Source: Patescibacteria group bacterium (lineage in GTDB: Bacteria; Patescibacteriota; Minisyncoccia; Phycocordibacterales; CAIZLB01). Taken from it: 64,000 bases of DNA. Under the pieces are notes generated by a model that was given only the letters and a program-made list of their open reading frames with translations, was not told the origin of the DNA and did no database searches. The position numbers and the translations under genes were made by a program. Positions 2,802 to 58,341 of the stretch are shown one piece after another. Every line of letters starts with the position of its first letter. The stretch's first letter is position 1. The stretch lies in contig JAZKJG010000001.1 of the NCBI GenBank assembly GCA_040384445.1, forward strand, positions 249,483 through 313,482. Direction: 5' to 3'.

Positions 2802-3706
2802 TTGTTTTTAAATATTCTTAGTTTTGCGCTTCGTGATCTCGGATTTAATTCGATCTCAGTCGCGGTAGGCAGTATAACTTTTTTATTCAAGCGTATCCCT
2901 AACCCTTCCTCTTCATATTTCTTAAACATATTCTTAACAATTCTGTCTTCAAGACTGTGGTAGCTTATGACGATTATTTTTCCTTCAGGAGCAAGAAGTT
3001 TCTGTGCATATTCCAACCCCTTCTCAAGAACTTGTAGTTCACCATTTACAGTGATTCTAATAGCTTGAAATGTTTTAGTTGCTGGATGGATTCCCCCTTT
3101 TCTTTTTACAACGCTTTCGATTAGGTCCGCTAGTTGTTTTGAAGTCTTGATTGGATTGATTTCTCGTGCCGCCTCGATTGCTTTGGCAATCTTCCAAGCA
3201 GACTGTTCTTCTGCATATGTTCGAAGGATAAGTGCAATGTTGTCTGGTGACCAACTGTTTACAATATCGTATGCAGTAAGTATGTCCCCTTGTTCATCTG
3301 TCAGTACATCTGTTGAGAATCTCATATCTAGAGGCTCGTCATATTTGAATGAAAACCCTCTTTCAGATGGACCAAGTTGATATGTACTTAGTCCGAGATC
3401 AAACAAGATACTGTCAAATGTTCCTTCATGCTCTTTTCCAATCAATGGTTCCAATTCTCCAAAATTTCCTTTGTGAATCGTTAATCGATCTTTTAAAGAT
3501 GTAATCTTTTTGTTTTGTTGTAAAAAGTTCTGGGCTCGTTCTATTGCGTTCTCATCTGCATCTATTGCATGTACATGGACGTTTGGATTTTGTACAAGAA
3601 GTTCTTCTACATGTCCTCCGTCTCCAAAGTTACAGTCTAAGTGAATCTTTGAGTCTGCACATAGTTCTGTAATTTCTTTCAGTAATACTGGAATGTGTCG
3701 TGTCAT
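2798..3706 (-). CDS. rsmH: 16S rRNA (cytosine1402-N4)-methyltransferase RsmH (MraW)
   Basis: 302 aa; N-terminal HIPVLLKE motif and SAM-MTase fold typical of RsmH; downstream of mraZ. Confidence 0.85.
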   Translation of the reverse strand: MTRHIPVLLKEITELCADSKIHLDCNFGDGGHVEELLVQNPNVHVHAIDADENAIERAQNFLQQNKKITSLKDRLTIHKGNFGELEPLIGKEHEGTFDSILFDLGLSTYQLGPSERGFSFKYDEPLDMRFSTDVLTDEQGDILTAYDIVNSWSPDNIALILRTYAEEQSAWKIAKAIEAAREINPIKTSKQLADLIESVVKRKGGIHPATKTFQAIRITVNGELQVLEKGLEYAQKLLAPEGKIIVISYHSLEDRIVKNMFKKYEEEGLGIRLNKKVILPTATEIELNPRSRSAKLRIFKNK

Positions 3707-3714
3707 ATAGTTGC

Positions 3715-4173
3715 TTAGAGTACACCAATTTCTCCTAATTTTGCAGCGAGGCTATCAGCTTCCTTCAAAATTCTTTCTTTATACACTTTCCACTTCTTCT
3801 CCTCCCAAATCTCAACTCTTGTATGAACTCCGGTAAATACAAGTTTTTGAGAACTTTTCTTATCTCCCGATGCATCTAGTCCCATATAATCTTTCAAAAA
3901 ATCTGGCATCAATATTCTTCCTGCACTATCAACTTCAACTTCTACTGCTCCTGCGAGCATAATTCGGTTGAAAGCTCTCGTATCAGGATTCAACATGGAC
4001 ATTTTTCCAAGTTGAGCGGCGATATTTGCCCACTCACTCAATGTAAACATGAACAGACAGCTGTCGAGACCGTGTGTGATTATAACGTTCTTTCCAAGCT
4101 CTTTTCTGAACTTAGAAGGAAGTGATAAACGTTTTTTTTCATCTAATGTGTGTGTAAATTCTCCTATGAACAT
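3715..4173 (-). CDS. mraZ: Transcriptional regulator MraZ
   Basis: 152 aa; MFIGEFTHTLDEKKRLSLPSKFR matches the duplicated MraZ DxxxR motif; first gene of the dcw cluster. Confidence 0.85.
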   Translation of the reverse strand: MFIGEFTHTLDEKKRLSLPSKFRKELGKNVIITHGLDSCLFMFTLSEWANIAAQLGKMSMLNPDTRAFNRIMLAGAVEVEVDSAGRILMPDFLKDYMGLDASGDKKSSQKLVFTGVHTRVEIWEEKKWKVYKERILKEADSLAAKLGEIGVL

Positions 4174-4182
4174 ATGCTTTTT

Positions 4183-4228
4183 AAGTGGTCTACCACTTTA
4201 TCCCACTTGATACCATTTTATACCACTT
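4183..4228 (-). promoter_or_regulatory. Putative MraZ operator: four direct AAGTGG/AAATGG repeats at 10-bp spacing plus one inverted copy
   Basis: On the minus strand: AAGTGGtataAAATGGtatcAAGTGGgataAAGTGGtaga, i.e. plus CCACTT at 4193, 4203, 4213(CCATTT), 4223; inverted AAGTGG at 4183-4188. The repeats overlap a TTTGCA-N17-TAAAAT-like promoter 20-55 nt upstream of the mraZ ATG. Confidence 0.45.
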
Positions 4229-4366
4229 CATGGGATTTGCAAATAGACATTACGGGGGTTTTGTGTGGGAATGTTGGGTTTTGATGATTATTTTTGTTTT
4301 GGTGCGAAAGTTGACAAAATTACTAAGGAATGATATTTTAAATAAGCACCTTTAACCTTTAAAAAT

Positions 4367-4690
4367 ATGCTCGGGGCATTTATTCAACTTTACGAAGACA
4401 ATAAACGCAAATCAGATTACTGTTCCAAAATCACGAAAATCAAACATTCACCAGAAAGAAAGATCAAAAAAGTAGTTCAAACCCTGAAAACATGGATCGA
4501 TGGGAAATATGAAAAGGGCTTAACAAAAAGAGAAGTAATTTCAGAGGTATATATTTGGGTTGTTACAGTCATGATCCAAAAGTATTACAAAGATCAACCT
4601 GAAGGTTCTGAATATGAGGAAACTTTTTACTGTGAGACTAAAGAAGCAGCTGAAAGAAAAGTTCCTGGTCATTCATGGAGTGGATTTTAA
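4367..4690 (+). CDS. Hypothetical protein (107 aa)
   Basis: Intact ORF followed by a perfect 10-bp-stem terminator; no recognisable motif. Confidence 0.4.
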   Translation: MLGAFIQLYEDNKRKSDYCSKITKIKHSPERKIKKVVQTLKTWIDGKYEKGLTKREVISEVYIWVVTVMIQKYYKDQPEGSEYEETFYCETKEAAERKVPGHSWSGF

Positions 4691-4715
4691 TTCTTTCTCA
4701 ATATCACAAACAAAC

Positions 4716-4750
4716 CACTAGAGGAGAATCCTCTAGTGTGTTTTTATTTT
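4716..4750 (+). terminator. Intrinsic terminator
   Basis: cactagagga-gaa-tcctctagtg followed by tgtttttatttt. Confidence 0.6.
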
Positions 4751-4755
4751 ACCTC

Positions 4756-5223
4756 CTACCGTCCCCCTCCATTCTCAATCATCTTCTCAATCACAGACAA
4801 ATGCGTGATCAAATCAGTTTTCGGAATCCCTTTCGCTAAAAATTTCATATGGACCCTTAATTCAACTTCAACTTTCTCAACAAACTTTCTTCCTTTAGCA
4901 GTTATAAACACATTCTTAGCTCTACTATCTAGTGGATCAGACTTAGTTTCTACCAACTCCTTTTTCGTTAACTCACGAACTAACACAGTAACAAAAGGAG
5001 GTTCTACAATCAATTCATCTGACAATGCACTGAACCTTAAACCTTTTTCGTCATCATATAAAATTCCAAGGAGTGCCCAATCAATTGTGGATATATTATG
5101 CTCAAGCAACTTTTCACCAGTGATCACTTTTAAAAGTCTATACACTTTTGCATGCAAAAGACCTACCCTATAGGTAGTTCGATGCTTTATTGCAGTTTGT
5201 ATTTTTTTAACGAGATCAAACAT
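4756..5223 (-). CDS. MarR-family transcriptional regulator
   Basis: 155 aa; winged-HTH pattern (DPLDSRAKNVFITAKGRKF...) typical of MarR/OhrR; adjacent to msrB. Confidence 0.6.
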   Translation of the reverse strand: MFDLVKKIQTAIKHRTTYRVGLLHAKVYRLLKVITGEKLLEHNISTIDWALLGILYDDEKGLRFSALSDELIVEPPFVTVLVRELTKKELVETKSDPLDSRAKNVFITAKGRKFVEKVEVELRVHMKFLAKGIPKTDLITHLSVIEKMIENGGGR

Positions 5224-5226
5224 AAT

Positions 5227-5703
5227 TTACTGTATCGTATCAGGTATAAATTTTAAGGCAAGACCATTAATACAATATCGAAGTCCTGTTGGAGTTTGAG
5301 GAGCATCATTAAATACATGTCCAAGGTGGCTTTTACATTTTGCAGAAATAATCTCTGTTCTATCCCCATCTGCCCGTTCTTCTACAGAACTTGATGCAAT
5401 CGGAGCCCAGAAACTTGGCCATCCTGTTCCTGTTTCAAACTTTTGTTCTGATCTAAACACTGGTTCGTTACAGTCAGCAGTTACATATGTTCCTTTTCGT
5501 TTTTCATATAGTAGATCACTCGTAAACGGACGCTCTGTTGCACCTTCTTTAAGAACTGCATATTGTGCTGGAGTGAGTGAAGAATCTACACTTTTAACTT
5601 CTGAAGGATTTTTGTGTATTCTTGACACAATAAAACCGAGTTGAACAATAACTATGACTATAAGTATTATTTTGATGAATTTTGATTGCATATATATGTG
5701 CAT
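5227..5703 (-). CDS. msrB: Peptide methionine-(R)-S-oxide reductase MsrB with N-terminal signal anchor
   Basis: 158 aa; GTGWPSF, CxxC...CxxC zinc motifs and RYCINGLAL catalytic region; hydrophobic N-terminus implies extracytoplasmic localisation. Confidence 0.8.
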   Translation of the reverse strand: MHIYMQSKFIKIILIVIVIVQLGFIVSRIHKNPSEVKSVDSSLTPAQYAVLKEGATERPFTSDLLYEKRKGTYVTADCNEPVFRSEQKFETGTGWPSFWAPIASSSVEERADGDRTEIISAKCKSHLGHVFNDAPQTPTGLRYCINGLALKFIPDTIQ

Positions 5704-5706
5704 TAA

Positions 5707-7374
5707 TTAACCGAATGTAAATGTGAATGCTTCAAGTCCTGGAGAACCTGTTCGAATCTCAAGCGTATGTTCTCCATATTCATTTCCATCAACTAGTGTA
5801 TATAGTTCATTTGCCTGAATCACAATATCTTTCACCTTTTTTCCATCTATATATATCTCAGTTGTAATTGGTTTCTCTGAACTTGCAACCATATATACAC
5901 TTCTTGCATCATACTTGTACAAAATTTTTCCTTTAGTTTTTGACATGGCTGATTCCGGAGTAAAATTCCATGTTCCTTCTAGATACAGTTTATTTTTAAT
6001 TATTGTCTGTGGGATTACAAATGTCTGAGTACCCAACACTCCAGCTTTACCATTTTCAAGAACCAAGTTTCTTGCAGAACCAAAGTACACCTCCTTACTA
6101 TTCACTCTTGAAGACTCATAGTTCATCACATTATTAGGATTTACGATATCAGTTGGAATCTTTATTTCAGGTCTCGTAGCATTTAATTTAAGCAATGCCA
6201 TTTGAATTGCTCTCTCTGTTTCAAGATATTCACCTTCACCAATATGGTCATATACGATATTCCCCTCTTCATCAATCAAATATTTTCGTGGCCAATATTG
6301 ATTTCCATATGCATTCCAAGTCTGATATGAGTTATCCAACACTACTGGATGTTTTACGTTAAATTTTCGAACTGCCTCTTCTACATTTTTCTCAACTTTT
6401 TCAAATGCAAATTCTGGCGTATGAAGGCCTATCACAACTAATCCTTTATCTTTATATTTTTCATACCACGCGTTTACATACGGAAGCGTTCTCTGACAAT
6501 TAATACAACTATACGTCCACACATCAAGGAGAATCACTTTTTTACCCTTAAACTCTGCAATAGTTATTGGCTGACCATCAGTATTTATATACCCATCTGG
6601 ACTCACAAGTTCTGGTGCCACGGTTCCAATAACTTCAGAATTATTCTTTTTATCTAGTGATAAGATTTTCTGTTCAACTTTTGTAACATCAAACAATCCA
6701 GCATCAAGAATACTTCTTTGAATCTTCTTATCTATTCCAAACATGATTCCCACTCCAACAATAATAAACAGAACACCAAGTCCTTTTTTAAACCATCCGT
6801 TAGGATCTGCCAGATTTCCAAGCTTACCAACAAACCTTTGTCCTACAAACGCAATAAGGAGAAGCATTCCCGATAAACCAATCGTATATACCACAAGGCA
6901 AAGTAGTCCAAATAAAAATGATTGTGGCAATACTGTTGCTAAAATAACAAAATATGTTGGACTACATGTTGAGAATACTGGACCTAAAGATGCTCCAATA
7001 ATAATGTCACCGTACGTACTCTCTTTATTTGAACCGATATTCATTACCTTGTTTGACTTCAAGGAGAGTTTATTTACAAAACGAAGTCTATCCCACAGAT
7101 TTGGAAACAAACTGATCAATCCAAATACAATAATAATTGTTCCGGAAATTATTGCCCAAACTGTTGGAGGAATATCAATAAACGCAGTACTTACTTTCAG
7201 AATGAGAGTAAAAATAATAATCGATGCTGCAAGAGAGCCTGCAATAACAAATGCTTTCTTTCTGTTATTTACTCCAGATACAGTACTTCCAATAATAATC
7301 GGTAGAATTGGCAGTGTACATGGGGCAAGTATTGTGAGAACTCCTGCGATAAATGAAATAAGTAGTAATATCAT
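5707..7374 (-). CDS. CcdA/DsbD-like membrane electron transporter fused to a TlpA/ResA-like thioredoxin domain plus a ~170-aa C-terminal domain of unknown function
   Basis: 555 aa; N-terminal ~6 TM with CcdA-type Cys pairs; central WTYSCINCQ (WCxxC thioredoxin motif); beta-rich C-terminal extension not recognised. Confidence 0.65.
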   Translation of the reverse strand: MILLLISFIAGVLTILAPCTLPILPIIIGSTVSGVNNRKKAFVIAGSLAASIIIFTLILKVSTAFIDIPPTVWAIISGTIIIVFGLISLFPNLWDRLRFVNKLSLKSNKVMNIGSNKESTYGDIIIGASLGPVFSTCSPTYFVILATVLPQSFLFGLLCLVVYTIGLSGMLLLIAFVGQRFVGKLGNLADPNGWFKKGLGVLFIIVGVGIMFGIDKKIQRSILDAGLFDVTKVEQKILSLDKKNNSEVIGTVAPELVSPDGYINTDGQPITIAEFKGKKVILLDVWTYSCINCQRTLPYVNAWYEKYKDKGLVVIGLHTPEFAFEKVEKNVEEAVRKFNVKHPVVLDNSYQTWNAYGNQYWPRKYLIDEEGNIVYDHIGEGEYLETERAIQMALLKLNATRPEIKIPTDIVNPNNVMNYESSRVNSKEVYFGSARNLVLENGKAGVLGTQTFVIPQTIIKNKLYLEGTWNFTPESAMSKTKGKILYKYDARSVYMVASSEKPITTEIYIDGKKVKDIVIQANELYTLVDGNEYGEHTLEIRTGSPGLEAFTFTFG

Positions 7375-7446
7375 ATGTTTATTATAATGTTGTTAATCAT
7401 CAAGACCAAACGTCATAATCGATTGATCTTGATTCAAACAACAATA

Positions 7447-8058
7447 CTATTTAGTTGGCATCAACACAGAGTCGATCACAAATGTAACTCCATTCGAAGA
7501 AATTACATCTGCTGTCTCAACCATTGCTGTTCCATTAACAGTAAGTTGTCCGCTAGCTGATTTTCCAATCTTAAGTGACTCACCCTGAACTGTTTTAAGC
7601 ATCATCCCATCCTTAAGATCTGCTGAAGTATATCTTCCTGCTACAACGTGGTACGTAAGGATATTTGTAAGTTTTGCTTTGTTCTCTGGTTTTACCAAAG
7701 TTTCAACTGTTCCTGCTGGAAGTTTTGCAAAGGCAGCGTTTGTTGGAGCGAAAACCGTAAATGGTCCAGCACTCTTTAATGTATCAACCAATCCAGCTGC
7801 TTTAACAGCTGCAACCACTGTTGTTACATTACTTGCATTCATAGCATTATCTACAATATCTTTACTTTTCACCATCATAGCTCCACCAACCATCACCCCT
7901 TCTTCTCTTGTCATCACTTCACCACTATTATTATCCATCATAGAATTATTCATCATACTGTTTGATTCCATCATTTTATCGTCTTTGTTCAATAGAACTA
8001 ATCCGATAATTCCAAGTATAACGATAATTATGATTGTTATTGTAGTTTCTTTTGACAT
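7447..8058 (-). CDS. Fasciclin (FAS1) domain protein with N-terminal TM and M/N-rich low-complexity segment
   Basis: FTVFAPTNAAFAKLP...VTFVIDSVLMP are fasciclin signature blocks. Confidence 0.7.
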   Translation of the reverse strand: MSKETTITIIIIVILGIIGLVLLNKDDKMMESNSMMNNSMMDNNSGEVMTREEGVMVGGAMMVKSKDIVDNAMNASNVTTVVAAVKAAGLVDTLKSAGPFTVFAPTNAAFAKLPAGTVETLVKPENKAKLTNILTYHVVAGRYTSADLKDGMMLKTVQGESLKIGKSASGQLTVNGTAMVETADVISSNGVTFVIDSVLMPTK

Positions 8059-8095
8059 AGTTTTGGATATTAATTTAATTATTAAAAGTTTATAG

Positions 8096-8117
8096 TACTT
8101 AAGTAGATACTTAAGTA
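8096..8117. promoter_or_regulatory. Two copies of the self-complementary 10-mer TACTTAAGTA in the fasciclin gene upstream region
   Basis: tacttaagta at 8096-8105 and 8108-8117, separated by ga, 40-60 nt upstream of the fasciclin start. Confidence 0.3.
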
Positions 8118-8195
8118 ACTTAACTATATCCTTTTTGCGTATTAAAAGCTATGTATTTTGTTGTGAAGAATTTTTATGACACTAAAATTTAATTC

Positions 8196-9116
8196 TTACC
8201 ACCCTCCACTACTCCCTCCTCCACCGGAACTTCCACCTCCTCCTGAAAATCCTCCACCCCCACCACTTCTTCCTCCCGATCCTGACATCCCTCCCCAGAA
8301 TCCACCTCCACCCCTAGATTTTTTTATACTTTTTTGCAGTGCATCCAGTATTTTCTCTGAAAAAGATGATTTACCAGAAAAGAACGCATCCACAATCAAC
8401 CCGAGTAATGCAATAATAAAGACAAATACTGTTTGAGTAATAATAAACAACACTACAGAAAGTATAAGCCCCAGAAAAAACCCTAACCATACAGATCTAG
8501 ATTTTGACATTGCCACAAGAATTGAAACAATAACTGTCACAAGTGAAGAAAGTATAAAGAATATGAAAAATAAAACACCAAACCAATCACTCGGATTCAC
8601 ATTTAACCCCTCATCCGCCACATATGCCTCACCACGCGACACAATATCAATCATTCTATCAACAGCATCATTCACCCCCTTCCCATAATCTCCAGCTTGA
8701 AAAGCCGGTGTTACATTTTCCCTTCTTATAATATCCGTCAATGAATCTGGCATTACCCCTTCAAGCCCATAACCAACTTCAAATCTATTCTTTCTATCTT
8801 CAAGCGAAATCAAAAACAATAATCCATTATTCTTATCCTTCTGCCCAATTTCATTATTTTGAAACAGCTCATATGCAAATGTCTCAATAGTCTGATCCGA
8901 TGGAAGTTTAGGAATTGTTACCACAACTATCTGGTTCGATGTAGATGCGTTAAATGAAGCCAGCTTACTCTCTATAACAGCCTGTACGTCGTCAGGAATC
9001 ATGTTTGCAGTATCTGTGACAAACATACTCAACTTCATATCAACACCTTGCGCAGAGACATCTACAACAAAAAAACTGCATACACTCAATATGGTAATGT
9101 ATAGCAGTTTTTTCAT
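8196..9116 (-). CDS. TPM-domain (TLP18.3/Psb32/MOLO-1) protein with TM segments and Gly/Ser-rich C-terminal tail
   Basis: 306 aa; signal peptide, TPM phosphatase-like domain, 4 TM, GGGGSSGGGG tail; classic partner of LemA. Confidence 0.7.
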   Translation of the reverse strand: MKKLLYITILSVCSFFVVDVSAQGVDMKLSMFVTDTANMIPDDVQAVIESKLASFNASTSNQIVVVTIPKLPSDQTIETFAYELFQNNEIGQKDKNNGLLFLISLEDRKNRFEVGYGLEGVMPDSLTDIIRRENVTPAFQAGDYGKGVNDAVDRMIDIVSRGEAYVADEGLNVNPSDWFGVLFFIFFILSSLVTVIVSILVAMSKSRSVWLGFFLGLILSVVLFIITQTVFVFIIALLGLIVDAFFSGKSSFSEKILDALQKSIKKSRGGGGFWGGMSGSGGRSGGGGGFSGGGGSSGGGGSSGGW

Positions 9117-9704: not shown

Positions 9705-10655
9705 TTATGCACTCAATCCACAAAGCTTTTTTATCTCTTTAATTCTCTTAAGTGCAACTTTATTTGCCTGCTTATTTCCCTTTTCTACAACTTTCAAAAT
9801 TACCTTCATATTCTTCGCAAGCTTTTCTCGTCTTTCTCTTAAAGGTTTTATAAATGCATCAAGATCGTCTATAAGTGCCTCCTTTAAAGCTTTATACTTT
9901 CCTTTATGTAACTCATAAAGTGGTGCAAGCTCAGCCTCAGTCTTGATAAGTTTATGAATGTTGTAGACGTGAGTTGGAACATCGGATCCAGAGTCAGTCA
10001 CGATACTCATTACCAGTTTTTGAATTTCTTCTCGAGTAGAAAACAATGGGATTGTATTTCCATAACTCTTACTCATTTTCTTTCCATCGATTCCAGGTAC
10101 AAGTTGTGCATCGGCAATTAAAATCTCTTTTGGTTCTACAAAATATTCTCCATACTCATGATTAAATTTTCGTACTACGTCTCGAGCAATCTCAACATGC
10201 TGTTTATTATCAATTCCTACTGGCACATGAGTTGTTCCGTACAGGAGAATATCTGCAGCCATAAGCACTGGGTACAGAAACGTTCCGGCTAATACTTCTT
10301 TCCCTTTCGCCTCTGCGTCTTTATATAAATGTCCTCGCATCAAGTATGGTACCGTCATCAAGTAAGAGAAAATCATTGCCAGTTCAGAATGAGCAGGTAC
10401 TGCTGACTGAATAAACAACGTAGAGTTCTTTGGATCAATTCCAATAGCTAAATAGTCAAGTATGATGTCAAGACTTGCTTGTCTCATTGCTTCACCCTTA
10501 TTGGCGTCAAGCGTATGCATGTCTGCAACCATAAAAAACTTATCAGCACTTTTGTGCTCGTTTTGCATTTCCACAAATTGTCGCATTGCACCAAAATAAT
10601 TTCCAATATGCGGTCTTCCACTTGGTCGTACTCCTGATAAAATAATATTTTTCAT
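9705..10655 (-). CDS. trpS: Tryptophan--tRNA ligase
   Basis: 316 aa; HIGN (HIGH-class) and KMSKS motifs; N-terminus SGVRPSGRPHIGNYFGA typical of TrpRS. Confidence 0.85.
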   Translation of the reverse strand: MKNIILSGVRPSGRPHIGNYFGAMRQFVEMQNEHKSADKFFMVADMHTLDANKGEAMRQASLDIILDYLAIGIDPKNSTLFIQSAVPAHSELAMIFSYLMTVPYLMRGHLYKDAEAKGKEVLAGTFLYPVLMAADILLYGTTHVPVGIDNKQHVEIARDVVRKFNHEYGEYFVEPKEILIADAQLVPGIDGKKMSKSYGNTIPLFSTREEIQKLVMSIVTDSGSDVPTHVYNIHKLIKTEAELAPLYELHKGKYKALKEALIDDLDAFIKPLRERREKLAKNMKVILKVVEKGNKQANKVALKRIKEIKKLCGLSA

Positions 10656-23451: not shown

Positions 23452-24811
23452 TAGCTTTTTGAACTCTGACCATACTTTCTGATTTTCCCAAAATATAAAG
23501 CATTGAAAATGGATCTACAGACTTCTCTTGAAGTGTCAGTGCAATTCGAAGTGGCCACAACACAATCCCTCTTCCTTTTTCTTCGGCGAAGCTCCATAGC
23601 TTTTCTTTTATACTTTCTACAGTGTTGTAATCTTCTTCTGTTGTATTCTCTAAAATAGACTTCACTTCATTTAAAATAGCTGCAGTAGACTCCTTTGTGA
23701 CTTCAGTTCCTTTTCTCATTTTCTCTGGAACTAATAGTAAGTTTGAAATTTCTTCTGTACTCAGTGATGAATTTGAAGAATATAAATATGTATATGATGG
23801 ATCAGTATCCATATTTGCGAGTTCTCCAGCATACGAAAGTCTATCTCGAACTATGAGTAAAATTTTCTTAAGTGAGGCTGTATCTACATTTTCTACAACA
23901 GATGTTGGTATAAATGGAGTTACATACTCTATATAGGCATCTTCTGACATGAGCTTCATGTGCTCTTGATTGAACCAATCGAGTTTTACAGGATTAAACA
24001 CAGCTCCGCCTTTTTGTACTTTTGAAAGATCGAAAACTTGAATGAGTTCATCAAGTGTGTAAATTTCTTTTTCTCCACCTGGATTAAATCCGATGAATGC
24101 AGCTGCGTTTAGGATAGCCGATGGTAGGTATCCCATCTTCTTATACTCCAATACAGAAAGTGCCCCTTTTCGTTTTGAAAGTTTTTGTTTATCTTCACCA
24201 AGTACAAGAGGGATATGTGCGTACTCAGGAATTTTTCCACTAAGTGCTTCAATCAAAAGAATTTGTCGTGGTGTATTTGAAATATGATCCATCCCTCGAA
24301 TCACATGTGTTACACCAGATTCCATATCATCAACCACTACTGCTAAGTGATATAGTGGATCGTTTATATTTCGTGCAATAACAAAATCACCCAGATCAGT
24401 ACTGTCTACTGAAATTTCTCCTAGAATTAAATCATTAAATACAACTCTCTTGTTTGGGTTTTTAAATCGAACAATTTCTTTAATTACTCCGCTTCCATCT
24501 TTTGCTTCTTCTTTTGAAATATATGCATGTCCAGCATCAATAAGCGTATGAATTGCTTTTGTGTGTGATGCAACATTTTCAGTTTGAATAGAAACTTCTC
24601 CATCATATGATAGACCAAGCCACTCTAAACTTTCTAAAATTCCATCTTGATACTCTTTCTTTGATCGCTCTTTATCTGTATCTTCGATTCGGAGTAAAAA
24701 TTTTCCTCCTTTTTGTTTTGCATATAAATAGTTAAAAATTGCAGTACGGTATGAACCGATGTGAGCGTGACCTGTCGGACTTGGTGGAAATCGTACGACG
24801 ATGTGTGACAT
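23432..24811 (-). CDS. gltX: Glutamate--tRNA ligase
   Basis: 459 aa; RFPPSPTGHAHIGSYRTAIFNY (HIGH) and KLSKR motifs. Confidence 0.85.
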   Translation of the reverse strand: MSHIVVRFPPSPTGHAHIGSYRTAIFNYLYAKQKGGKFLLRIEDTDKERSKKEYQDGILESLEWLGLSYDGEVSIQTENVASHTKAIHTLIDAGHAYISKEEAKDGSGVIKEIVRFKNPNKRVVFNDLILGEISVDSTDLGDFVIARNINDPLYHLAVVVDDMESGVTHVIRGMDHISNTPRQILLIEALSGKIPEYAHIPLVLGEDKQKLSKRKGALSVLEYKKMGYLPSAILNAAAFIGFNPGGEKEIYTLDELIQVFDLSKVQKGGAVFNPVKLDWFNQEHMKLMSEDAYIEYVTPFIPTSVVENVDTASLKKILLIVRDRLSYAGELANMDTDPSYTYLYSSNSSLSTEEISNLLLVPEKMRKGTEVTKESTAAILNEVKSILENTTEEDYNTVESIKEKLWSFAEEKGRGIVLWPLRIALTLQEKSVDPFSMLYILGKSESMVRVQKAIDVMVQ

Positions 24812-24815
24812 ATAA

Positions 24816-25025
24816 TTATCTTCTTCTTACTAGTTTTGGTTTTCCTCCGTATGAATCTAATTCAATCTCTACTGTATCTCCAACTAAAATTCGAATTCGG
24901 TTGTATTTCATTTTACCACTTAAATACGCAAGCATAAGAGTTCCATCTTCAAGTTGCACACGAAAATGAGTGTCTGGGAGTGATTCTACCACTGTTCCGG
25001 TGAGGATGATTTTGTCTTGTGCCAT
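24816..25025 (-). CDS. infA: Translation initiation factor IF-1
   Basis: 69 aa; AKDKIILTGTVVESLPDTHFRVQLEDG...ISGKMKYNRIRILVGD aligns to IF-1 (S1/OB fold). Confidence 0.9.
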   Translation of the reverse strand: MAQDKIILTGTVVESLPDTHFRVQLEDGTLMLAYLSGKMKYNRIRILVGDTVEIELDSYGGKPKLVRRR

Positions 25026-25068
25026 ATGGGGTTATGGTACAGTAGAATGGTAATTTTGGCAATTGAGG

Positions 25069-25096
25069 TTGACAGGTAGTATATGTATGGTATTAT
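25069..25096 (+). promoter_or_regulatory. Strong sigma70-type promoter (TTGACA-N16-TGgTATTAT) at the left edge of the accessory islet
   Basis: TTGACA 25069-25074; extended -10 TGgTATTAT 25088-25096. Confidence 0.5.
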
Positions 25097-25155
25097 ATAT
25101 CCAGGCACTTTATATTTGAAGAGTGCTAATTTCAAACCATCATTTGATATTTATT

Positions 25156-25410
25156 ATGGACGATAGAGATTATTGGCTCAAAGAAGACGGAGAACTATGG
25201 AAGAATGTAACTCGGAGTGAGTTTACATATGCCGAACGTCGTGCGGGATACAAGCCTAAAGTAGGCGGTAGTCCTGTAGCAACTCCAGGCTTTTCAAAAG
25301 GCACTGTTGAGGGTCGAATTACCTACCCGGACACTAACCCTTCAGCATATGCGGACTGGGATCCAGCTTTTGCAAAAATTTTGGAAGCACACCAAGCAGT
25401 GGCTGCGTAA
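25156..25410 (+). CDS. Hypothetical small protein (84 aa from first ATG; ORF track begins at an upstream GTG 25123)
   Basis: MDDRDYWLKEDGELWKN...; bracketed by the promoter at 25069 and terminator at 25427. Confidence 0.35.
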   Translation: MDDRDYWLKEDGELWKNVTRSEFTYAERRAGYKPKVGGSPVATPGFSKGTVEGRITYPDTNPSAYADWDPAFAKILEAHQAVAA

Positions 25411-25426
25411 TTGCCACAACTATAGA

Positions 25427-25460
25427 ACACCGACCAGAAATGGTATCGGTGTTTTCTTTT
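25427..25460 (+). terminator. Intrinsic terminator
   Basis: acaccga-cagaaatggta-tcggtgt followed by tttcttttt. Confidence 0.5.
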
Positions 25461-25462
25461 TG

Positions 25463-25491
25463 TTGACACATCACTTTATTAGTGGTATTTT
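25463..25491 (+). promoter_or_regulatory. Promoter TTGACA-N17-TGgTATTTT
   Basis: TTGACA 25463-25468; extended -10 at 25483-25491. Confidence 0.5.
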
Positions 25492-25564
25492 TCACACAGT
25501 ACATTCATCAGGTAGAGGTCCCAGAAAAACCCAGGTGTCCTTATTACACCAAAGATATATACGT

Positions 25565-25774
25565 ATGCAACTTTCTTACCCTCCAGATACAGCCTTATGT
25601 GATATGTGTGGTGGACATGAAGTTGAATGTCATGTATGTGAAGGCAGACGTCATGTCTCAAAACACAGCCCACATGCAAGGCGATGCGCGGGTGATCAAT
25701 GCTTCAAAGTCGTCCCTTCAGACGCAGTCTTCACACTTTACTGCACTATACGTTGCAAATTCACAAACGAATAA
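25565..25774 (+). CDS. Cys-rich small protein (69 aa; 8 Cys, zinc-ribbon-like)
   Basis: MQLSYPPDTALCDMCGGHEVECHVCEGRRHV...CAGDQCFKV...LYCTIRCKF; first in-frame ATG after the promoter; terminator follows. Confidence 0.4.
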   Translation: MQLSYPPDTALCDMCGGHEVECHVCEGRRHVSKHSPHARRCAGDQCFKVVPSDAVFTLYCTIRCKFTNE

Positions 25775-25784
25775 TAACTCACCG

Positions 25785-25820
25785 CTCGGGAATTCCCGCT
25801 TCGGTGGGTTTTCTTTTTTG
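25785..25820 (+). terminator. Intrinsic terminator (cgggaattcccg palindrome + cccgc-ttcg-gtggg hairpin + T-run)
   Basis: Read directly from the sequence; the T-run ttttctttttt runs into repeat copy A. Confidence 0.5.
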
Positions 25821-25842
25821 ATGAAAGTACTTTGTTTGACAT
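25819..25842 (+). repeat. 24-nt repeat TTGATGAAAGTACTTTGTTTGACA, copy A (ends in a -35-like TTGACA)
   Basis: Identical 24-mer recurs at 26486-26509. Confidence 0.65.
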
Positions 25843-25929
25843 TTTACAGAGTAATGATACTGTTACTCTCGGCACTGAAGAAAGGTAGTACTCAGTCCAG
25901 CACCTCATATTTAACAAAAGGAGTCTCGT

Positions 25930-26259
25930 ATGGTAACACTCACGACTAGTCACAAAAATCCTCGCAGAAAATTTCGGAAATTTAATCGGAAGAAAGTAGT
26001 GAAGCTACTTGAACAGGCGCCGAAGTTCTTTATTTTTCACAAGTTTGTCAGGTGTCACTTTAACGACGAAATTAGGGTTTTAAATCTTGATACTCATCTC
26101 AACCTCGGAAAATACGGCAGGTTTGCACTTGTTGCCTTTGACGGATCCTCAGCAATCATCATGCACAGAGCACGACGTCAAAAAAACGATCGATTCATTT
26201 CCATTAGGAACAACAAAAATGTTAAGATCGGACACGGCATGTTCGTTGAGGAACGGTAA
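25930..26259 (+). CDS. Hypothetical basic protein (109 aa)
   Basis: ATG at 25930 preceded by AAAGAG; Lys/Arg-rich N-terminus; no motif recognised. Confidence 0.4.
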   Translation: MVTLTTSHKNPRRKFRKFNRKKVVKLLEQAPKFFIFHKFVRCHFNDEIRVLNLDTHLNLGKYGRFALVAFDGSSAIIMHRARRQKNDRFISIRNNKNVKIGHGMFVEER

Positions 26260-26281
26260 ACATCTCCCTCGCATACCTTTC

Positions 26282-26437
26282 ATGGAAAATATTATTCAAG
26301 CCCTATTTGGAATCCTTAAAATTATTGGATGCCTTCTTACTGTTGTCGTTATTGTATGCATCATTTGCTACAAGGAAATGCCACATGTCTGGACATGCAT
26401 AACAATACTCTGGGAAGAATGGAGGAAAAAGAAGTGA
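26282..26437 (+). CDS. Possible small hydrophobic protein (51 aa), low confidence
   Basis: MENIIQALFGILKIIGCLLTVVVIVCIICYKEMPHVW...; C-terminal part of ORF 26087..26437; ends 3 nt before terminator/repeat B. Confidence 0.25.
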   Translation: MENIIQALFGILKIIGCLLTVVVIVCIICYKEMPHVWTCITILWEEWRKKK

Positions 26438-26439
26438 TT

Positions 26440-26485
26440 AAAACAACCTCCCGCACTGTCATGGTGTGGGAGGGTTTTTGTTTTC
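26440..26485 (+). terminator. Terminator hairpin, copy B of a ~44-nt repeat (cctcccgcac-tgtcatg-gtgtgggagg + T-run)
   Basis: Near-identical copy at 27286-27331 (2 substitutions, 1 indel). Confidence 0.6.
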
Positions 26486-26509
26486 TTGATGAAAGTACTT
26501 TGTTTGACA
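26486..26509 (+). repeat. 24-nt repeat TTGATGAAAGTACTTTGTTTGACA, copy B
   Basis: Identical to 25819-25842; its TTGACA serves as the -35 for TGgTATTTT at 26524-26532. Confidence 0.65.
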
Positions 26510-26532
26510 CAACCATTGACATGTGGTATTTT
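26504..26532 (+). promoter_or_regulatory. Promoter TTGACA-N17-TGgTATTTT driving the MazG-like gene
   Basis: TTGACA 26504-26509, spacer 17 nt, -10 TATTTT 26527-26532 with a TG extension. Confidence 0.5.
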
Positions 26533-26567
26533 GCAAACAGAAACAAAACCTTTACTACCCTACCCTC

Positions 26568-27287
26568 ATGACCCTTGAAGAATTCCTGTCTCACTTTGGA
26601 AAAATATACGGAAAAAACAATAGGATATTTTATTCTCCTTTAGAGCACGTTGGATTTATCTCCGCTGCCATTCGGAATGTTCAAGAAACGCTGCGCAAAA
26701 AACCTGGCAACACAAGAGCTCTTGAAGAATCAATCGGCGGTCTCATTGCTCGAATTTTTGCAATCGCAACATTCTATCGGAAATTACCATTGAACAGTGG
26801 CTTTTGTACTAAATTCCCAGCCGGAGTTTGCGGAGATTGCCAGACATCAACATGTTCTTGTGATTATCAAAATCGTCCCAAGCATTCTGGAAATAAGCCT
26901 CCTGAAGAACAGTTCGCCTGGACATTGGCACAGCATCAAGAAAACATGCGAGCAGTATATGGACAAAGCAACACCGAAAAAGGAGGCACTTCTTTCTGCT
27001 TCGAAAGACTTCATTCCGAAGCTGCAGAACTTGTCTCGATTCTAATCGGTTCCGATTACACAGGTTGCACCGCTGTTGAAATTGAAAAAGGTCTCGTGGA
27101 AGAAATTTCCGATGTTTTGGCTTGGACATTGTCTTTAGCTGTTCAACTCAATGTCGATGCACAACATGTTGCTCTCCATATGTATGGCAATGGGTGTCCT
27201 ATCTGCTCCGACAATCCATGTAGGTGTCAAAAGTTCAGAATCGATCCGAGAAATCAGATTGAAACTGCCCGGACTCAACCCGCGTAA
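26568..27287 (+). CDS. MazG-like all-alpha NTP pyrophosphohydrolase domain protein with two Cys clusters
   Basis: 239 aa from ATG 26568; HSEAAELVSILIG...EISDVLAWTLSLAVQLNVD resembles the MazG EExxE/D helix pair; CGDCQTSTCSC and CPICSDNPCRC clusters. Confidence 0.5.
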   Translation: MTLEEFLSHFGKIYGKNNRIFYSPLEHVGFISAAIRNVQETLRKKPGNTRALEESIGGLIARIFAIATFYRKLPLNSGFCTKFPAGVCGDCQTSTCSCDYQNRPKHSGNKPPEEQFAWTLAQHQENMRAVYGQSNTEKGGTSFCFERLHSEAAELVSILIGSDYTGCTAVEIEKGLVEEISDVLAWTLSLAVQLNVDAQHVALHMYGNGCPICSDNPCRCQKFRIDPRNQIETARTQPA

Positions 27288-27331
27288 AACAACCTCCCAC
27301 ACTGTTATGGTGTGGGAGGGTTTTTTGTTTT
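27286..27331 (+). terminator. Terminator hairpin, copy C of the ~44-nt repeat
   Basis: cctcccacac-tgttatg-gtgtgggagg followed by gttttttgttttt. Confidence 0.6.
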
Positions 27332-27335
27332 TATA

Positions 27336-27364
27336 CTTGACCGTATACATAATAGGCGCTATTA
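27336..27364 (+). promoter_or_regulatory. Promoter TTGACC-N17-TATTAT
   Basis: TTGACC 27336-27341; TATTAT 27359-27364. Confidence 0.45.
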
Positions 27365-27370
27365 TACTTG

Positions 27371-27562
27371 AGGAAAACTGGTTGTAACAAACACTGAAGC
27401 AAAATCTAGATTGTGAGTAGTGTCAATTTTCAACCCAAGACTTAACAAACACGAACCTAAATTTATTCAGCAAGTACTGTCACTTTAAGTTATGAAAAGA
27501 ATTCCCCCGTTTGCTCGTTTTTCCGTTCAAACCCCTCCTTCGCACCGAAGGAGGGGTTTTTT
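27371..27562 (+). ncRNA. Candidate ~190-nt small RNA bounded by a promoter and an intrinsic terminator
   Basis: No credible ORF; the only long frame (27511..27726) runs through the terminator cccctccttcg-cac-cgaaggagggg + tttttt at 27532-27562. Confidence 0.3.
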
Positions 27563-27572
27563 ATATTTATAT

Positions 27573-27914
27573 TCATTTATACATCTCATCACGAATTCTT
27601 GTCAGCCCCTCAATCACTTTTTCATCGGTGATCAGAGTAAATCTTGAAACTGATTCTCCGTCGATCTCAACATTTCCCATCCACATTTCAAGTGGACGGA
27701 TATCAAAGAACTTTCCTGCTTTGTAAACTGAGGATTCGTAGATGGGTTGATAAACCACAAAGTGCACATCATCTTCTTCCGTGTGATAACCCACACCTAC
27801 CACTTGGTATACATAATTATTCATTGAACCATTGGGATTGTGCTTGTAATGGTAGTAAAAAGCACCTTTAACTGGGATGTTGGTTGGAATTTTCATGTGG
27901 GGGTAGTATAGCAT
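27573..27914 (-). CDS. DUF1653-family protein
   Basis: 113 aa; YYHYKHNPNGSMNNYVYQVVGVGYHTEEDDVHFVVYQPIY...RPLEMW matches the DUF1653 pattern (recalled from memory). Confidence 0.55.
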   Translation of the reverse strand: MLYYPHMKIPTNIPVKGAFYYHYKHNPNGSMNNYVYQVVGVGYHTEEDDVHFVVYQPIYESSVYKAGKFFDIRPLEMWMGNVEIDGESVSRFTLITDEKVIEGLTRIRDEMYK

Positions 27915-28040
27915 TTTTGGGAGAGGTGGAAATCTTTATCTTTTCTTTAACAAAACTTTTAAAAATATTTACATTGATAAAGTTATATTTATTTTGTGTT
28001 AAAATAATTAACATAAATTATTCATTATAAAAATCTATCC

Positions 28041-28778
28041 ATGCGAATATTACTTATCGAGGATGATGTCGATTTAGCAAAAAGTTTAGTAGAATGTCTT
28101 AAAACTGAACATATGATAGTAGACACTTGTGCAGAAGGTGATACTGGATCTTACGTAGCCAGAACCAATACCTATGACTTAATTCTTTTGGATCAAATTC
28201 TTCCTAAAAAATTAGGTACTGAAGTTTGTCAGGAACTCAGAAGATCTTATATTAAAACACCCATCCTAATAATGAGTGTGCGAAGTAATACAGAGGAGCG
28301 AATTTCATATCTCGAATCTGGTGCAGATGATTGTATTGCAAAACCGTTCTCAGTTGCTGAGTTAGTAATGAAGATAAAAGCATTAGTAAGAAGACCTTAC
28401 GATATCAAAGAGAGCGTAATTACAATAGATGACTTAACAATTGATGCAGGAACTCTAACAGTATCAAAAAATGGTAAAGGTTTATATTTTACCAGAAAAG
28501 AATTTTTAATTCTTGAACAAATTGCCAAAAAACCCGGACAAGTAGTAAGTCGTATGGATATTATGGACCATGTTTGGAATAAAGATTTTGATCCATTCTC
28601 AAACACGATAGAAACACATATTAGAAATATCCGTAAGAAAATTGGAGATAAAAGAAATACAAAAATAGAAACAGTTCCCGGGCGAGGATACAGGGTTTCA
28701 ACAAAAGAAACAGGTACTCTACGAGATCAAAGAATTCGAACCAATAAAAAGATTAACAAACCTACCCCCACTTCTTAA
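28041..28778 (+). CDS. OmpR/PhoB-family response regulator (orphan)
   Basis: 245 aa; receiver domain with EDD, phospho-acceptor LLDQILP, S/T and K residues; C-terminal winged helix (GRGYRV). Confidence 0.85.
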   Translation: MRILLIEDDVDLAKSLVECLKTEHMIVDTCAEGDTGSYVARTNTYDLILLDQILPKKLGTEVCQELRRSYIKTPILIMSVRSNTEERISYLESGADDCIAKPFSVAELVMKIKALVRRPYDIKESVITIDDLTIDAGTLTVSKNGKGLYFTRKEFLILEQIAKKPGQVVSRMDIMDHVWNKDFDPFSNTIETHIRNIRKKIGDKRNTKIETVPGRGYRVSTKETGTLRDQRIRTNKKINKPTPTS

Positions 28779-29476: not shown

Positions 29477-30385
29477 TTATAGTGTTTCGATCGCAGCCAA
29501 TGCTTTCTTGATCACAGGTATCATATCTTCGTACAAATTCAGATCAAGCACTGCATCAATTTTAAACCAAGCTGCATCTTTTAATCCTCCTTCTTTTTTT
29601 GCTGTTAATGGAGTAAACTTTGCTTCGGCAATAATATACTCTACTTGCTTACGAACTTTCTTAAACTCAGGATGCGATGCAATGTATTCACTCGTATCGA
29701 TAGTTTGTTTATATTCACAAGCAATTCCCAACTCTTCCTGTACTTTTCTTTTGGCCGCATCAATAAGAGTTTCATCTTCTAGAAACTTTCCTTTTGACAA
29801 TGTCCAGAATCCAAACACATCGTGCACAAGAGCAAGATATGTATCACCCTCATGTCGGGCATATACAATACTTCCCACAAGTTTCTGGACTGGTAGTGCC
29901 GCTTTTTCTTCTTCAGTCAGTTCTTTTCGAACTTTTGGTTCTTTCTTAGTTTTTGGTTCTTCAGCACCATATAGATCTCTATACACTGCCCCAAGAACTC
30001 CGTTTACAAATTTTCCAGATGTTTCTCCTGAGAAAAACTTAGCGACTTCAATTGCTTCGTTGATTGCTACTTTTGCCGGAACTTCTTTTTTATCAGCATA
30101 AATAAGCTCATAGAGTCCGAGTCGTAGAACATTTCTATCAACTGTTCCAATCTTTTCAAGAGGCCATTCTGGTGCTGCCTTTACTATAATTGCATCAATT
30201 TCTTTTTGCTTTTTCAAAATACCATCAAGAAGCGCCTTCGCATATGTAAGATCAACATCATCTTGTGAAAACTCCTGAACATTATGTACAAGAACTTCCT
30301 CAAATAAGTTAGGGTCAATACCACGAAAATCTATCTCATACAGAGATTGTAGTGCTATTGTTCGGGATTGATGTCGACTTGCCAT
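29477..30385 (-). CDS. nusB: NusB antitermination factor fused to a C-terminal NUDIX hydrolase domain
   Basis: 302 aa; residues 1-140 are NusB (RTIALQSLYEIDF, VAINEAIEVAKFF, KFVNGVLGAV); residues ~165-302 carry a Nudix box GKFLEDETLIDAAKRKVQEELGI (Gx5Ex7R[K]VxEExGI). Confidence 0.7.
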   Translation of the reverse strand: MASRHQSRTIALQSLYEIDFRGIDPNLFEEVLVHNVQEFSQDDVDLTYAKALLDGILKKQKEIDAIIVKAAPEWPLEKIGTVDRNVLRLGLYELIYADKKEVPAKVAINEAIEVAKFFSGETSGKFVNGVLGAVYRDLYGAEEPKTKKEPKVRKELTEEEKAALPVQKLVGSIVYARHEGDTYLALVHDVFGFWTLSKGKFLEDETLIDAAKRKVQEELGIACEYKQTIDTSEYIASHPEFKKVRKQVEYIIAEAKFTPLTAKKEGGLKDAAWFKIDAVLDLNLYEDMIPVIKKALAAIETL

Positions 30386-42262: not shown

Positions 42263-42622
42263 TTATCTCACGTAGAATCTCACAAGTAGTCCAAACAACA
42301 GCAAAGTCATTGCAAGTAACATGATCGTAGATATATATCGCTCTTTTACAATTGCAAATATTGAACCAAACAAAAACACAGTAGGAATAATAAAATGATG
42401 TACACCGGCCACACACGCATCTGTACACAGCAGTAATATTATAAACGGATATATACTTCCAACACACACAACAACTATTCCAACCCAACTCAGCACAGTA
42501 GTGAGTGTTTCAAATCTCTCATTTGCTGGTGTAAAATTTACCATGCGGAGGATGTGAGATTCGAACTCACGGAACCATTTCTGGCTCGACAGTTTAGTAA
42601 ACTGTTGATTTAAACCACTCAT
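42263..42622 (-). CDS. Membrane protein (119 aa), hypothetical
   Basis: 2-3 TM helices. Confidence 0.35.
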   Translation of the reverse strand: MSGLNQQFTKLSSQKWFREFESHILRMVNFTPANERFETLTTVLSWVGIVVVCVGSIYPFIILLLCTDACVAGVHHFIIPTVFLFGSIFAIVKERYISTIMLLAMTLLLFGLLVRFYVR

Positions 42623-42665
42623 CCAATCCTCCTTTCTTATAGGGATAATACCCTACAAGTTTATG

Positions 42666-58271: not shown

Positions 58272-58277
58272 GGTGTA

Positions 58278-58306
58278 AGTGTACCACGGTTCACCACTTT
58301 ACTACT
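58278..58306 (-). promoter_or_regulatory. Putative SOS operator upstream of umuD: GTGAACcgtgGTAC plus shared 18-mer AGTAGTAAAGTGGTGAAC
   Basis: Plus gtaccacggttcac at 58281-58294 is a Cheo-like box with one mismatch; 18-mer gttcaccactttactact at 58289-58306 is identical to 61331-61348. Confidence 0.4.
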
Positions 58307-58341
58307 GTAGAGATTTGTTTGGTTTTAATTGCAAACTACAC

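Follow-up and report, generated by a model that had tools for sequence, protein, structure and literature searches.

Positions 25069–27914 of the window that we analysed, a 64,000-nucleotide (nt) stretch of a chromosome of the Patescibacteria (or candidate phyla radiation, CPR), hold five consecutive same-strand units and a convergent DUF1653 gene, bounded on the left by infA (24816–25025, minus strand; Pfam eIF-1a) and on the right by an orphan OmpR-type response regulator (RR) gene (28041–28778). Each unit comprises a near-consensus sigma-70 promoter, a short leader, one or more small genes or a non-coding stretch of ~190 nt, and an intrinsic terminator; the five promoter–gene–terminator modules proposed in the initial annotation were recovered where it had placed them, at the level of consensus sequence. 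The NCBI annotation of the region records only an 84-amino-acid (aa) and a 254-aa open reading frame (ORF), both hypothetical. Beyond the earlier reading, comparison with relatives suggests that the islet represents a single configuration of a hypervariable array whose terminator–promoter junctions would behave like the promoter-early stem-loop (PeSL) elements of phages.

Organization of the array and its junctions

The units are numbered from left to right, with promoters P1–P5 and terminators T1–T5; coordinates refer to the plus strand unless stated otherwise, and contigs with related loci carry L numbers. Four of these contigs, L010, L074, L001 and L002, come from one metagenome and have core genes 98% identical to the window; together they are referred to as the 98% relative.

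A TTGACA −35 box followed by a TG-extended −10 element was found at 25069, 25463, 25836 and 26504, and TTGACC-17-TATTAT at 27337. The pattern TTGACA-N13-16-TGNTATWWT occurs four times in the 64 kb, three times within the islet (0.07 expected), and four of the five matches to a slightly looser pattern likewise fall inside it. The sites at 25069, 25463, 26504 and 27337 are among the top sigma-70-like sites of a 13-kb stretch, with 10–11 of 12 consensus matches, and three of the top-ranked sites (P1, P2 and P4) carry the TG extension. Hairpins with T-tracts lie at ~25428–25462, 25780–25817, 26447–26473, 27293–27319 and 27529–27559; their stems are GC-rich and 10–14 bp long, the next −35 box follows 4–40 nt downstream, and the changes in their arms between lineages are wobble-compatible or compensatory.

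The promoter scan also detected the infA promoter (TTGCCA-17-TACCAT; 25026–25068, minus strand), which forms the left boundary of the variable array; the variable region begins exactly where this promoter ends. It stands back to back with P1 within 25034–25096, the two −35 boxes lying ~6 nt apart, and leaves infA with a very short leader. P1 itself (TTGACA-16-TG-TATTAT; 25069–25096) drives the first predicted unit, which closes with T1 (25428–25462), a CACCGA..TCGGTG hairpin with a T-tract that is 98% conserved in L074 and carries compensatory arm changes in L005 (GTGCCGA..TCGGCAC). Unit 2 opens with P2 (TTGACA-17-TG-TATTTT) and leader 2 (together 25463–25564), the leader being 98.5% identical in L074 and 86% in L004, where the 120-aa gene behind it is an unrelated one, and ends with the T2 hairpin (25780–25817). 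T2-family terminators stand behind unrelated genes in L010 (cassette c101) and L006 (c123).

Unit 3 begins with P3 (TTGACA..TG-TACTGT) and leader 3 (25836–25929), which includes an AAGGAG ribosome-binding site. P3 is 100% and leader 3 92–97% identical in L069, L074 and L075, where the leader counterparts lie at 904–966, 491–554 and 1326–1387, respectively. The 65-nt leader (25865–25929) is nearly invariant, with 2–5 differences beside a p109 coding sequence whose synonymous divergence (dS) is 0.8–1.1; leader 3 may be a cis-regulatory or autoregulatory element. Only weak hairpins of 5–7 bp were predicted in the leaders (7 bp in leader 3), and variation is too low for a covariation test. The unit ends with T3 (26439–26484).

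Unit 4 is headed by P4 (TTGACA-N6-TTGACA-TG-TGGTATTTT), which has a double −35-like box, and leader 4 (together 26504–26567). Promoters of this type, with the general form TTGACA-N6-TTGACA-NG-TGGTATTTTGCA, precede unrelated genes in L001, L004, L005, L006 and L069. Following T4 (27285–27330), unit 5 consists of P5 (TTGACC-17-TATTAT; 27337–27365), which is 100% identical in L002, and a non-coding unit ending in the bidirectional terminator T5 (27529–27559).

Two families of repeats connect the junctions. The 24-mer TTGATGAAAGTACTTTGTTTGACA occurs exactly at 25818–25841, immediately after T2, and at 26486–26509, with none expected by chance; the exact pair reported in the initial annotation was confirmed, with the first copy starting at 25818 rather than 25819. 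It is found nowhere else in the window even when three mismatches are allowed. Each copy includes a perfect 10-bp palindrome, AAAGTACTTT (25823–25834 and 26491–26502), ~5 nt upstream of the −35 box, and the first copy also takes in the P3 −35 box; the palindrome may be a candidate operator. The exact 12-mer GAAAGTACTTTG is confined to the two 24-mer junctions. The second repeat covers T3 and T4, which had been described as near-identical 44-nt copies at 26440 and 27286; the repeat is real, but it is 46 nt long, starts at 26439 and 27285, and its copies are 91% identical. Members of this T3/T4 family were found in L001, L002, L004 (two copies), L008, L011, L069 and L074 at 87–97.5% identity. 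The possibility that these repeats mark a genome-wide family of cassettes found no support within the 64 kb, where all their copies are confined to the array.

The compositional shift attributed to the islet is present but modest. Its GC content is 41.0% versus 37.7% (z=2.3; top 3% of 2.8-kb windows), and the GC content at third codon positions (GC3) sets the cargo apart clearly, at 33–46% versus 21–25% in gltX, infA, the RR gene and nusB, but its tetranucleotide distance (z=1.5) is not significant. A second stretch of the window, at ~57500–60000, has islet-level GC content (0.42–0.43) and a local positive GC skew. Consistent with the initial annotation, precomputed Pfam matches for the genes between 18.0 and 30.7 kb included no integrase, transposase or recombinase; all statements below on the absence of such genes refer to this interval. 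Rfam searches, at gathering thresholds for the whole window and at E values up to 10 for 24800–28100, assigned no family to the islet; the only matches were weak and terminator-driven.

Cargo genes and the p239 protein family

The cargo list of the initial annotation held for the 69-, 109-, 51- and 239-aa ORFs and for the non-coding stretch, but left out the 84-aa gene of unit 1. That gene (25156–25410) encodes an acidic protein, p84, with homologues in L010 (67% aa identity), L005 (36%) and L076 (47%; HMMER E=1e-13) and a ratio of nonsynonymous to synonymous divergence (dN/dS; this ratio and dS were computed by the Nei–Gojobori method) of 0.23–0.24. L076 is a 103.6-kb contig of 59.5% GC. Part of it is phage-like, with small ORFs by the dozen in one orientation, among them DUF2786, DUF4326 and the anti-restriction gene ArdA; PHROGs are matched by six of ten neighbours, and the p84 homologue (10001–10234) lies beside ArdA. 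Unit 2 encodes p69 (25565–25774), a Cys-rich protein of 69 aa with eight Cys residues, arranged in two CxxCxG motifs and a C-terminal C..C..YCxxxC. It is 65% identical at the aa level in L074; in L004 its homologue (35%) is a C-terminal domain within a 132-aa protein anchored in the membrane. The dN/dS of p69 is 0.46.

Unit 3 carries p109 (25930–26259), a basic 109-aa protein with a pI of 11.4, and the hydrophobic 51-aa peptide p51 (26282–26437; grand average of hydropathy 0.92), which is predicted to be co-transcribed with it. Homologues of p109 are 93, 64 and 61% identical (dN/dS 0.22–0.39), and those of p51 are 98% (L074) and 73% (L069) identical (dN/dS 0.08–0.28). The AlphaFold2 model of p109 is all-beta and of moderate confidence, with a predicted local distance difference test (pLDDT) score of 75; Foldseek gave only weak beta-barrel likenesses (template modelling score at most 0.43, E at least 0.3) and no significant fold match. 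The putative non-coding transcript of unit 5 (~190 nt; 27372–27560) has stops in all three frames over 27372–27528. It matched no Rfam family, had no homologue among the fetched loci other than L002 and L003, and gave a fold z-score of −3.0 that is mostly terminator-driven; a crude RNAduplex scan returned no target in the islet. At the right end of the variable region, the DUF1653 gene (27573–27914, minus strand) is convergent with the array, as initially described, and matches PF07866 at 45.9 bits versus a cutoff of 23.5 (E=7e-12); its dN/dS is 0.25, and it is missing from the locus in L013 and L004.

The largest cargo protein, p239 (239 aa; 26568–27287), has two helical bundles with a CxxCxxxPCxC knuckle behind each. 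The N-terminal bundle is degenerate and lacks the acidic motif; the C-terminal bundle is of the catalytic type, with ExxE...ExxD. A word-indexed search returned almost nothing, and an exhaustive HMMER search returned 414 cluster representatives at E≤1e-3 (187 at E≤1e-10), nearly all of them full-length proteins of 235–255 aa. In an alignment of 44 family sequences, K82, C88/C91/C96/C98, E151/E154, E179/D182 and C213/C218/C220 are invariant, and C210 is kept in at least 90%. The family profile, compared with PDB sequences, matched 1vmg with E=1.3e-14 over residues 111–206, as well as iMazG, Bacillus subtilis MazG, YpjD and DCTPP1. AlphaFold2 modelling from the same alignment yielded a pLDDT of 94.6 and a predicted template modelling score of 0.91; all top Foldseek matches of p239 were MazG-superfamily structures, with probabilities up to 0.99 but E values of at least 0.07. 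Neither Pfam MazG (PF03819) nor MazG-like (PF12643) was matched above the gathering score (14.5 bits versus a cutoff of 27), and PF03819 was matched at E<0.01 by 9 of the 44 family members; no Pfam or NCBIfam model exceeded its threshold for p239, and the family is unnamed in these collections. On the strength of the PDB profile match, the AlphaFold2 model and the top Foldseek matches, p239 is placed in the MazG superfamily as a member of an unnamed family, and the MazG-like protein with two Cys clusters of the initial annotation is borne out by the invariant motifs as well.

The C-terminal bundle of p239 shares the ExxE...ExxD metal-binding motif with the all-alpha nucleoside triphosphate pyrophosphohydrolases, among them E. 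coli MazG (3cra), SSO3215 (1vmg), iMazG (2q5z), B. subtilis YpjD (2gta) and DCTPP1, and the layout of two bundles in a single chain resembles that of E. coli MazG. The two invariant knuckles, in contrast, are absent from the solved relatives. p239 probably hydrolyses a nucleoside triphosphate, with its knuckles stabilised by zinc. Its dN/dS is 0.06 versus L001, and alleles at the same locus are 39% (L069) and 37% (L013) identical. Further family members were found on the short contigs L080–L082. On three contigs from another CPR lineage (L071–L073), a p239-family gene and a HicAB pair are wedged between rpsJ (S10) and rplC (L3) of the S10 operon, and a protein kinase and a 71-aa gene stand between rplB and rpsS; in L071, these insertions lie at 3280–4903 and 7959–8972.

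Database homologues of the cargo are few or lacking. Throughout the cargo, dN/dS lies at 0.06–0.46, compared with 0–0.14 for core genes; because each array ORF has homologues and a ratio in this range, all five are, by this comparative measure, real genes under purifying selection. The cargo looks like a set of strain-specific accessory functions. The initial annotation had also considered a toxin or defence islet, and a defence, counter-defence or toxin–antitoxin function would be compatible with any shuffling architecture: the MazG-like enzyme would drain or sanitise the nucleotide pool, p109 and the membrane peptide p51 would form a toxin-like pair, and variability would reflect an arms race. 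Rapid allele turnover at the hotspot, the p239-family member beside HicAB, the p84 homologue beside ArdA and a Clp_N-domain cassette in relatives all fit such a function. PADLOC, however, matched none of 10 cargo proteins, Pfam detected no toxin or antitoxin domain in the cargo, and dN/dS is below 1 throughout. We consider a primarily defensive or toxic role unlikely, and no toxin or defence assignment emerged.

Cassette turnover among relatives

The arrangement in the window is found unchanged in L003, a separate Logan assembly that is 100% identical over 12.6 kb and possibly built from the same sample's reads; with that proviso, an assembly artefact was rejected. In L004–L012 and L069, similarity to the window ends at 25064–25126, just past the infA promoter, and other genes lie beyond. 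Across about ten related lineages, whose core genes are 77–98% identical at the nt level, the infA promoter is followed each time by a different set of cassettes, confirming that the region is accessory and strain-variable, as first described.

The closest view of this variation is afforded by the 98% relative, whose array was joined from metagenome contigs of 1.3–4.2 kb with overlaps of 19 and 8 nt and a gap inside p84'. Its order is infA, P1-c101-T2', P1-p84', P2-p69', P3-p109'-p51', P-c218, P4-p239, P-c134, P5-ncRNA, DUF1653 and RR. Three cassettes are additional to those of the window, and each lies between direct repeats of a junction element, in keeping with the initial view that the repeats mark cassette junctions. 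Cassette c101 (~477 nt) is flanked by a duplicated P1 −35 region (ttttggcaatt[g/a]aggttgacagg); c218 (825 nt) has on both sides the terminator tail and the 24-mer of the 26486 junction (gggagggtttttactttcttgatgaaag[g/t]actttgtttgaca); and c134 (511 nt), which encodes a thioesterase-like protein (Pfam 4HBT_2, 1e-7), has the 44-nt terminator of the T4 repeat on both sides. Each contig alone displays a junction–cargo–junction succession, and the 4HBT_2 match spans the join between L001 and L002.

These indels bear directly on the possibility that the hairpins are attC-like sites read by an unlinked recombinase, as in an integron or a comparable site-specific system. Like integron arrays such as the Vibrio superintegron, the array is unidirectional, is made up of small and mostly orphan or uncharacterised genes, has hairpin-forming boundaries and gains and loses whole cassettes; a MazG-type pyrophosphohydrolase, iMazG, is itself cassette 21 of the Vibrio rotiferianus DAT722 integron (PMC3856429). 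Unlike integrons, the locus has no intI or other tyrosine recombinase gene nearby and no attI or attC signature, and every cassette has a promoter and a terminator of its own. The hairpins are canonical terminators, with near-perfect stems, T-tracts and AAACAAC/GTTTTTG ends in place of the RYYYAAC/GTTRRRY ends of attC. The three indels, moreover, lie in three different junction parts, namely the −35 region, the 24-mer and the terminator, and not at one crossover site. An integron was accordingly rejected, given the lack of a nearby integrase and of attC and the promoter in each cassette, and any site-specific system of this kind appears very improbable.

Across these lineages, the regulatory parts are 92–100% identical, compared with adjacent coding sequences that are only 35–75% identical (75–82% at the nt level, or unalignable). 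In L069, infA is followed by a P4-type promoter, a p239 allele (39%), a terminator-repeat copy, P3 with leader 3, p109 (61%) and p51 (73%); P3 is 100%, leader 3 96.6% and the terminator 92–93% identical to the window, versus 75% for the p109 and 82% for the p51 coding sequence and 39% aa identity for p239. Likewise, leader 2 and T2 of L074 are 98.5% and 100% identical, versus 81% for the p69 coding sequence, and the terminator copy of L008 and L011 is 97.5% identical, with core genes there at 85–92%. The same families of promoters, leaders and terminators serve other cargo in L004, L005, L006, L008/L011 and L075, including proteins of 120 aa and 123 aa, another protein with a Clp_N domain, and a small membrane peptide. 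The membrane-peptide gene of L008 (~1395–1570) and L011 (~420–590, both in window orientation) is homologous to the N-terminus of the 132-aa protein of L004 and has ATA in place of an ATG start, which makes it a pseudogene unless translation begins at another start. Even between the 98%-identical strains, p84 and p69 have dS values of 0.4–1.0 versus 0.04–0.18 for core genes, which argues for allele replacement. Read from these alignments, cassette gain, loss, reordering and allele replacement take place at junction boundaries.

Three loci delimit the array further. L013 (GltX 77%) has only a MazG-like module (37% identical), with its own promoter, which lacks the second TTGACA, and a different terminator, beside an unrelated 246-aa gene; L014 (GltX 76%) has ordinary genes at this position and no array. 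In L004 (reverse complement, 2683–8300), the array abuts a convergent gene for a 1873-aa FG-GAP repeat protein and not DUF1653 and the RR gene, pointing to a larger rearrangement at the right border. The same loci weigh on the idea that these are ordinary small housekeeping or regulon genes under the adjacent OmpR-type RR, with the TTGACA-N6-TTGACA repeats and the 24-mer palindrome as operators and the repeats kept solely for regulation. The direct TTGACA repeat in P4-type promoters has a 12-bp spacing, the palindrome lies upstream of two −35 boxes, and the RR gene is adjacent both in the window and in L013. The L004 array, however, stands without an RR gene beside it, the promoter of the p239 gene in L013 has no second TTGACA, gene content differs even between 98%-identical strains, and L014 lacks the array. 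The regulon idea was rejected on account of L004, and we deem it extremely improbable.

The distribution of cassettes also speaks to origin. Phage morons are autonomous promoter–gene–terminator units of lambdoid prophages, described by Hendrix and colleagues, and share with the islet self-contained transcription, deviant composition and presence/absence variation between relatives; here, there is no surrounding prophage, and the units form a tandem array with common junction sequences. A remnant of a prophage or mobile element, in which phage morons or early genes were inserted once between infA and the RR gene and are now decaying, would be in line with the phage-like layout, the raised GC3 of the cargo, the p84 homologue on the 103-kb phage-like L076 contig and a p239 homologue (25% aa identity) carried as an accessory gene by a Vibrio inovirus, the sole phage match in tblastn. 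Such ties to mobile elements are thin. Against this origin, neither an integrase, nor att-like flanking repeats, nor structural or replication genes were found between 18.0 and 30.7 kb. In eight scans of IMG/VR, neither junction motifs nor cargo profiles matched anything (the profiles of p84, p109 and p239 recovered no relatives), PHROGs gave no significant match to the cargo, and tblastn searches found no phage match for p84 or p109 and no phage or plasmid match for P0176. Above all, differing cassette sets occur at the locus in about ten lineages, and a MazG-like module is present in a species with 77% GltX identity; these observations indicate an old hotspot and not a single insertion. A decaying prophage is therefore quite unlikely, and the discrete insert between infA and the RR gene envisaged initially gives way to a long-standing hypervariable hotspot. 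The likeness to phage early-gene cassettes persists in the architecture, which is PeSL-like, but not as evidence of phage origin.

The flanks of the hotspot are core bacterial genes (gltX, infA, rnc and nusB). To the left lie gltX, an M23 peptidase gene and dnaJ, and to the right rnc, a nusB–NUDIX fusion and rpmF. IF-1, the 69-aa product of infA, is identical on 14 contigs. The NusB–NUDIX fusion (302 aa; 29477–30385, minus strand; precomputed Pfam PF01029 and PF00293) is kept in L002, L003 and L013. Elsewhere in the window, a tRNA-Ser gene (42545–42632, minus strand) has the anticodon loop TT-ACT-AA, giving the anticodon ACU (A34) where GCU is usual for AGY codons, which is unusual for bacteria.

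Proposed recombination at junctions and its counterparts in phages

Taken together, a model for the locus emerges: in this Patescibacteria chromosome, autonomous expression cassettes probably form a hypervariable array that is shuffled, with no integrase, at its terminator–promoter junctions. Each cassette is a predicted insulated transcription unit whose terminator abuts the next promoter, and terminator and promoter together form a composite junction; the junctions belong to a few sequence families, namely T1, T2, T3/T4, the 24-mer, the P4-type double-TTGACA promoter and leaders 2 and 3. Junction sequences have diverged far less than the genes beside them, so that they can supply stretches of homology that travel with the cassettes. 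An exchange between two junction copies would excise what lies between them, and one with DNA from outside or with an excised circle would add or substitute cassettes, every gene remaining correctly expressed. Most likely, the host's own homologous recombination would carry this out, perhaps following uptake of DNA. A homologous process is favoured over a site-specific one by the three indels in three junction parts, by the plain terminator nature of the hairpins and by the lack of a recombinase gene nearby; we infer this mode of exchange, as we do promoter and terminator activity, from the arrangement of the sequences.

Several points weigh against cassette shuffling at junctions. The promoter and terminator calls are matches to sequence consensus only. 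Junction conservation could stem from selection on the expression signals alone, and the contigs of the 98% relative could derive from more than one co-existing strain. There are only two to three copies per junction family in each genome segment, and the 64-kb window has no others, as against ~50 PeSLs per phage genome. Finally, exact motifs for the terminator, the 24-mer, the P4 promoter, leader 2 and leader 3 had no matches in IMG/VR; the terminator motif had none in GTDB representative genomes or JGI metagenomes, and the three matches of the P4 motif in JGI metagenomes were all chance occurrences inside unrelated coding sequence. The junctions are thus documented only in one narrow clade.

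The closest counterparts of these junctions are the PeSLs, mobile regulatory cassettes of T4-type phages, for which recombination between repeated elements has been proposed as the mechanism of cassette exchange (Arbiol et al. 2010, PMC2839356; Comeau et al. 2014, PMC4122927). In both settings, a strong sigma-70-type promoter and a terminator stem-loop, here predicted, share one composite intergenic element, which is repeated between small ORFan genes of a hyperplastic region and stands directly upstream of them; these elements delimit the insertions, deletions and replacements that set close relatives apart, and the cassettes bring their own expression signals. The two differ in residence, the present array lying between core genes of a cellular CPR chromosome. 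They also differ in build: the PeSL hairpin overlaps the −35 and −10 elements, whereas here a canonical intrinsic terminator lies upstream of the promoter and conserved leaders belong to the junction. They differ, lastly, in number, with few copies in several families at one locus (two per family in 64 kb) in place of the ~50 of a phage genome. On sequence-level features the array is PeSL-like, with phage residence and copy number as the exceptions. Open-access papers that could be searched treat PeSLs as a feature of viruses only.

A broader proposition, which we advance tentatively and judge to be on the unlikely side, is that some CPR chromosomes carry an integron-like but integrase-free gene-capture system at a dedicated hotspot beside infA. 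Its junctions would double as plug-and-play expression signals and recombination handles; homologous recombination after DNA uptake would let strains capture, reshuffle and trade small foreign genes, some of them shared with phages and other mobile elements; and invariant leaders, such as leader 3 ahead of p109, may be additional cis-regulatory RNA elements.

The genomes of the CPR are tiny and streamlined, and little is understood of how these organisms come by strain-specific functions and express them. A cassette array shuffled at terminator–promoter junctions would represent a compact, recombinase-free way to slot in, remove and swap small genes, each of them predicted to be strongly and independently expressed. 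If this is true, the mechanism of the hyperplastic regions of T4-type phages would extend beyond viruses to a cellular chromosome, and such an array would explain why regions of this kind fragment in metagenome assemblies. The junctions would provide natural, portable promoter and terminator parts for organisms that are not yet engineerable. The fast-turnover cargo, comprising a MazG-like protein with putative zinc knuckles, a Cys-rich protein, a basic protein and its membrane peptide, a thioesterase-like protein and a Clp_N-domain protein, offers candidates for interactions with hosts, symbionts or phages.

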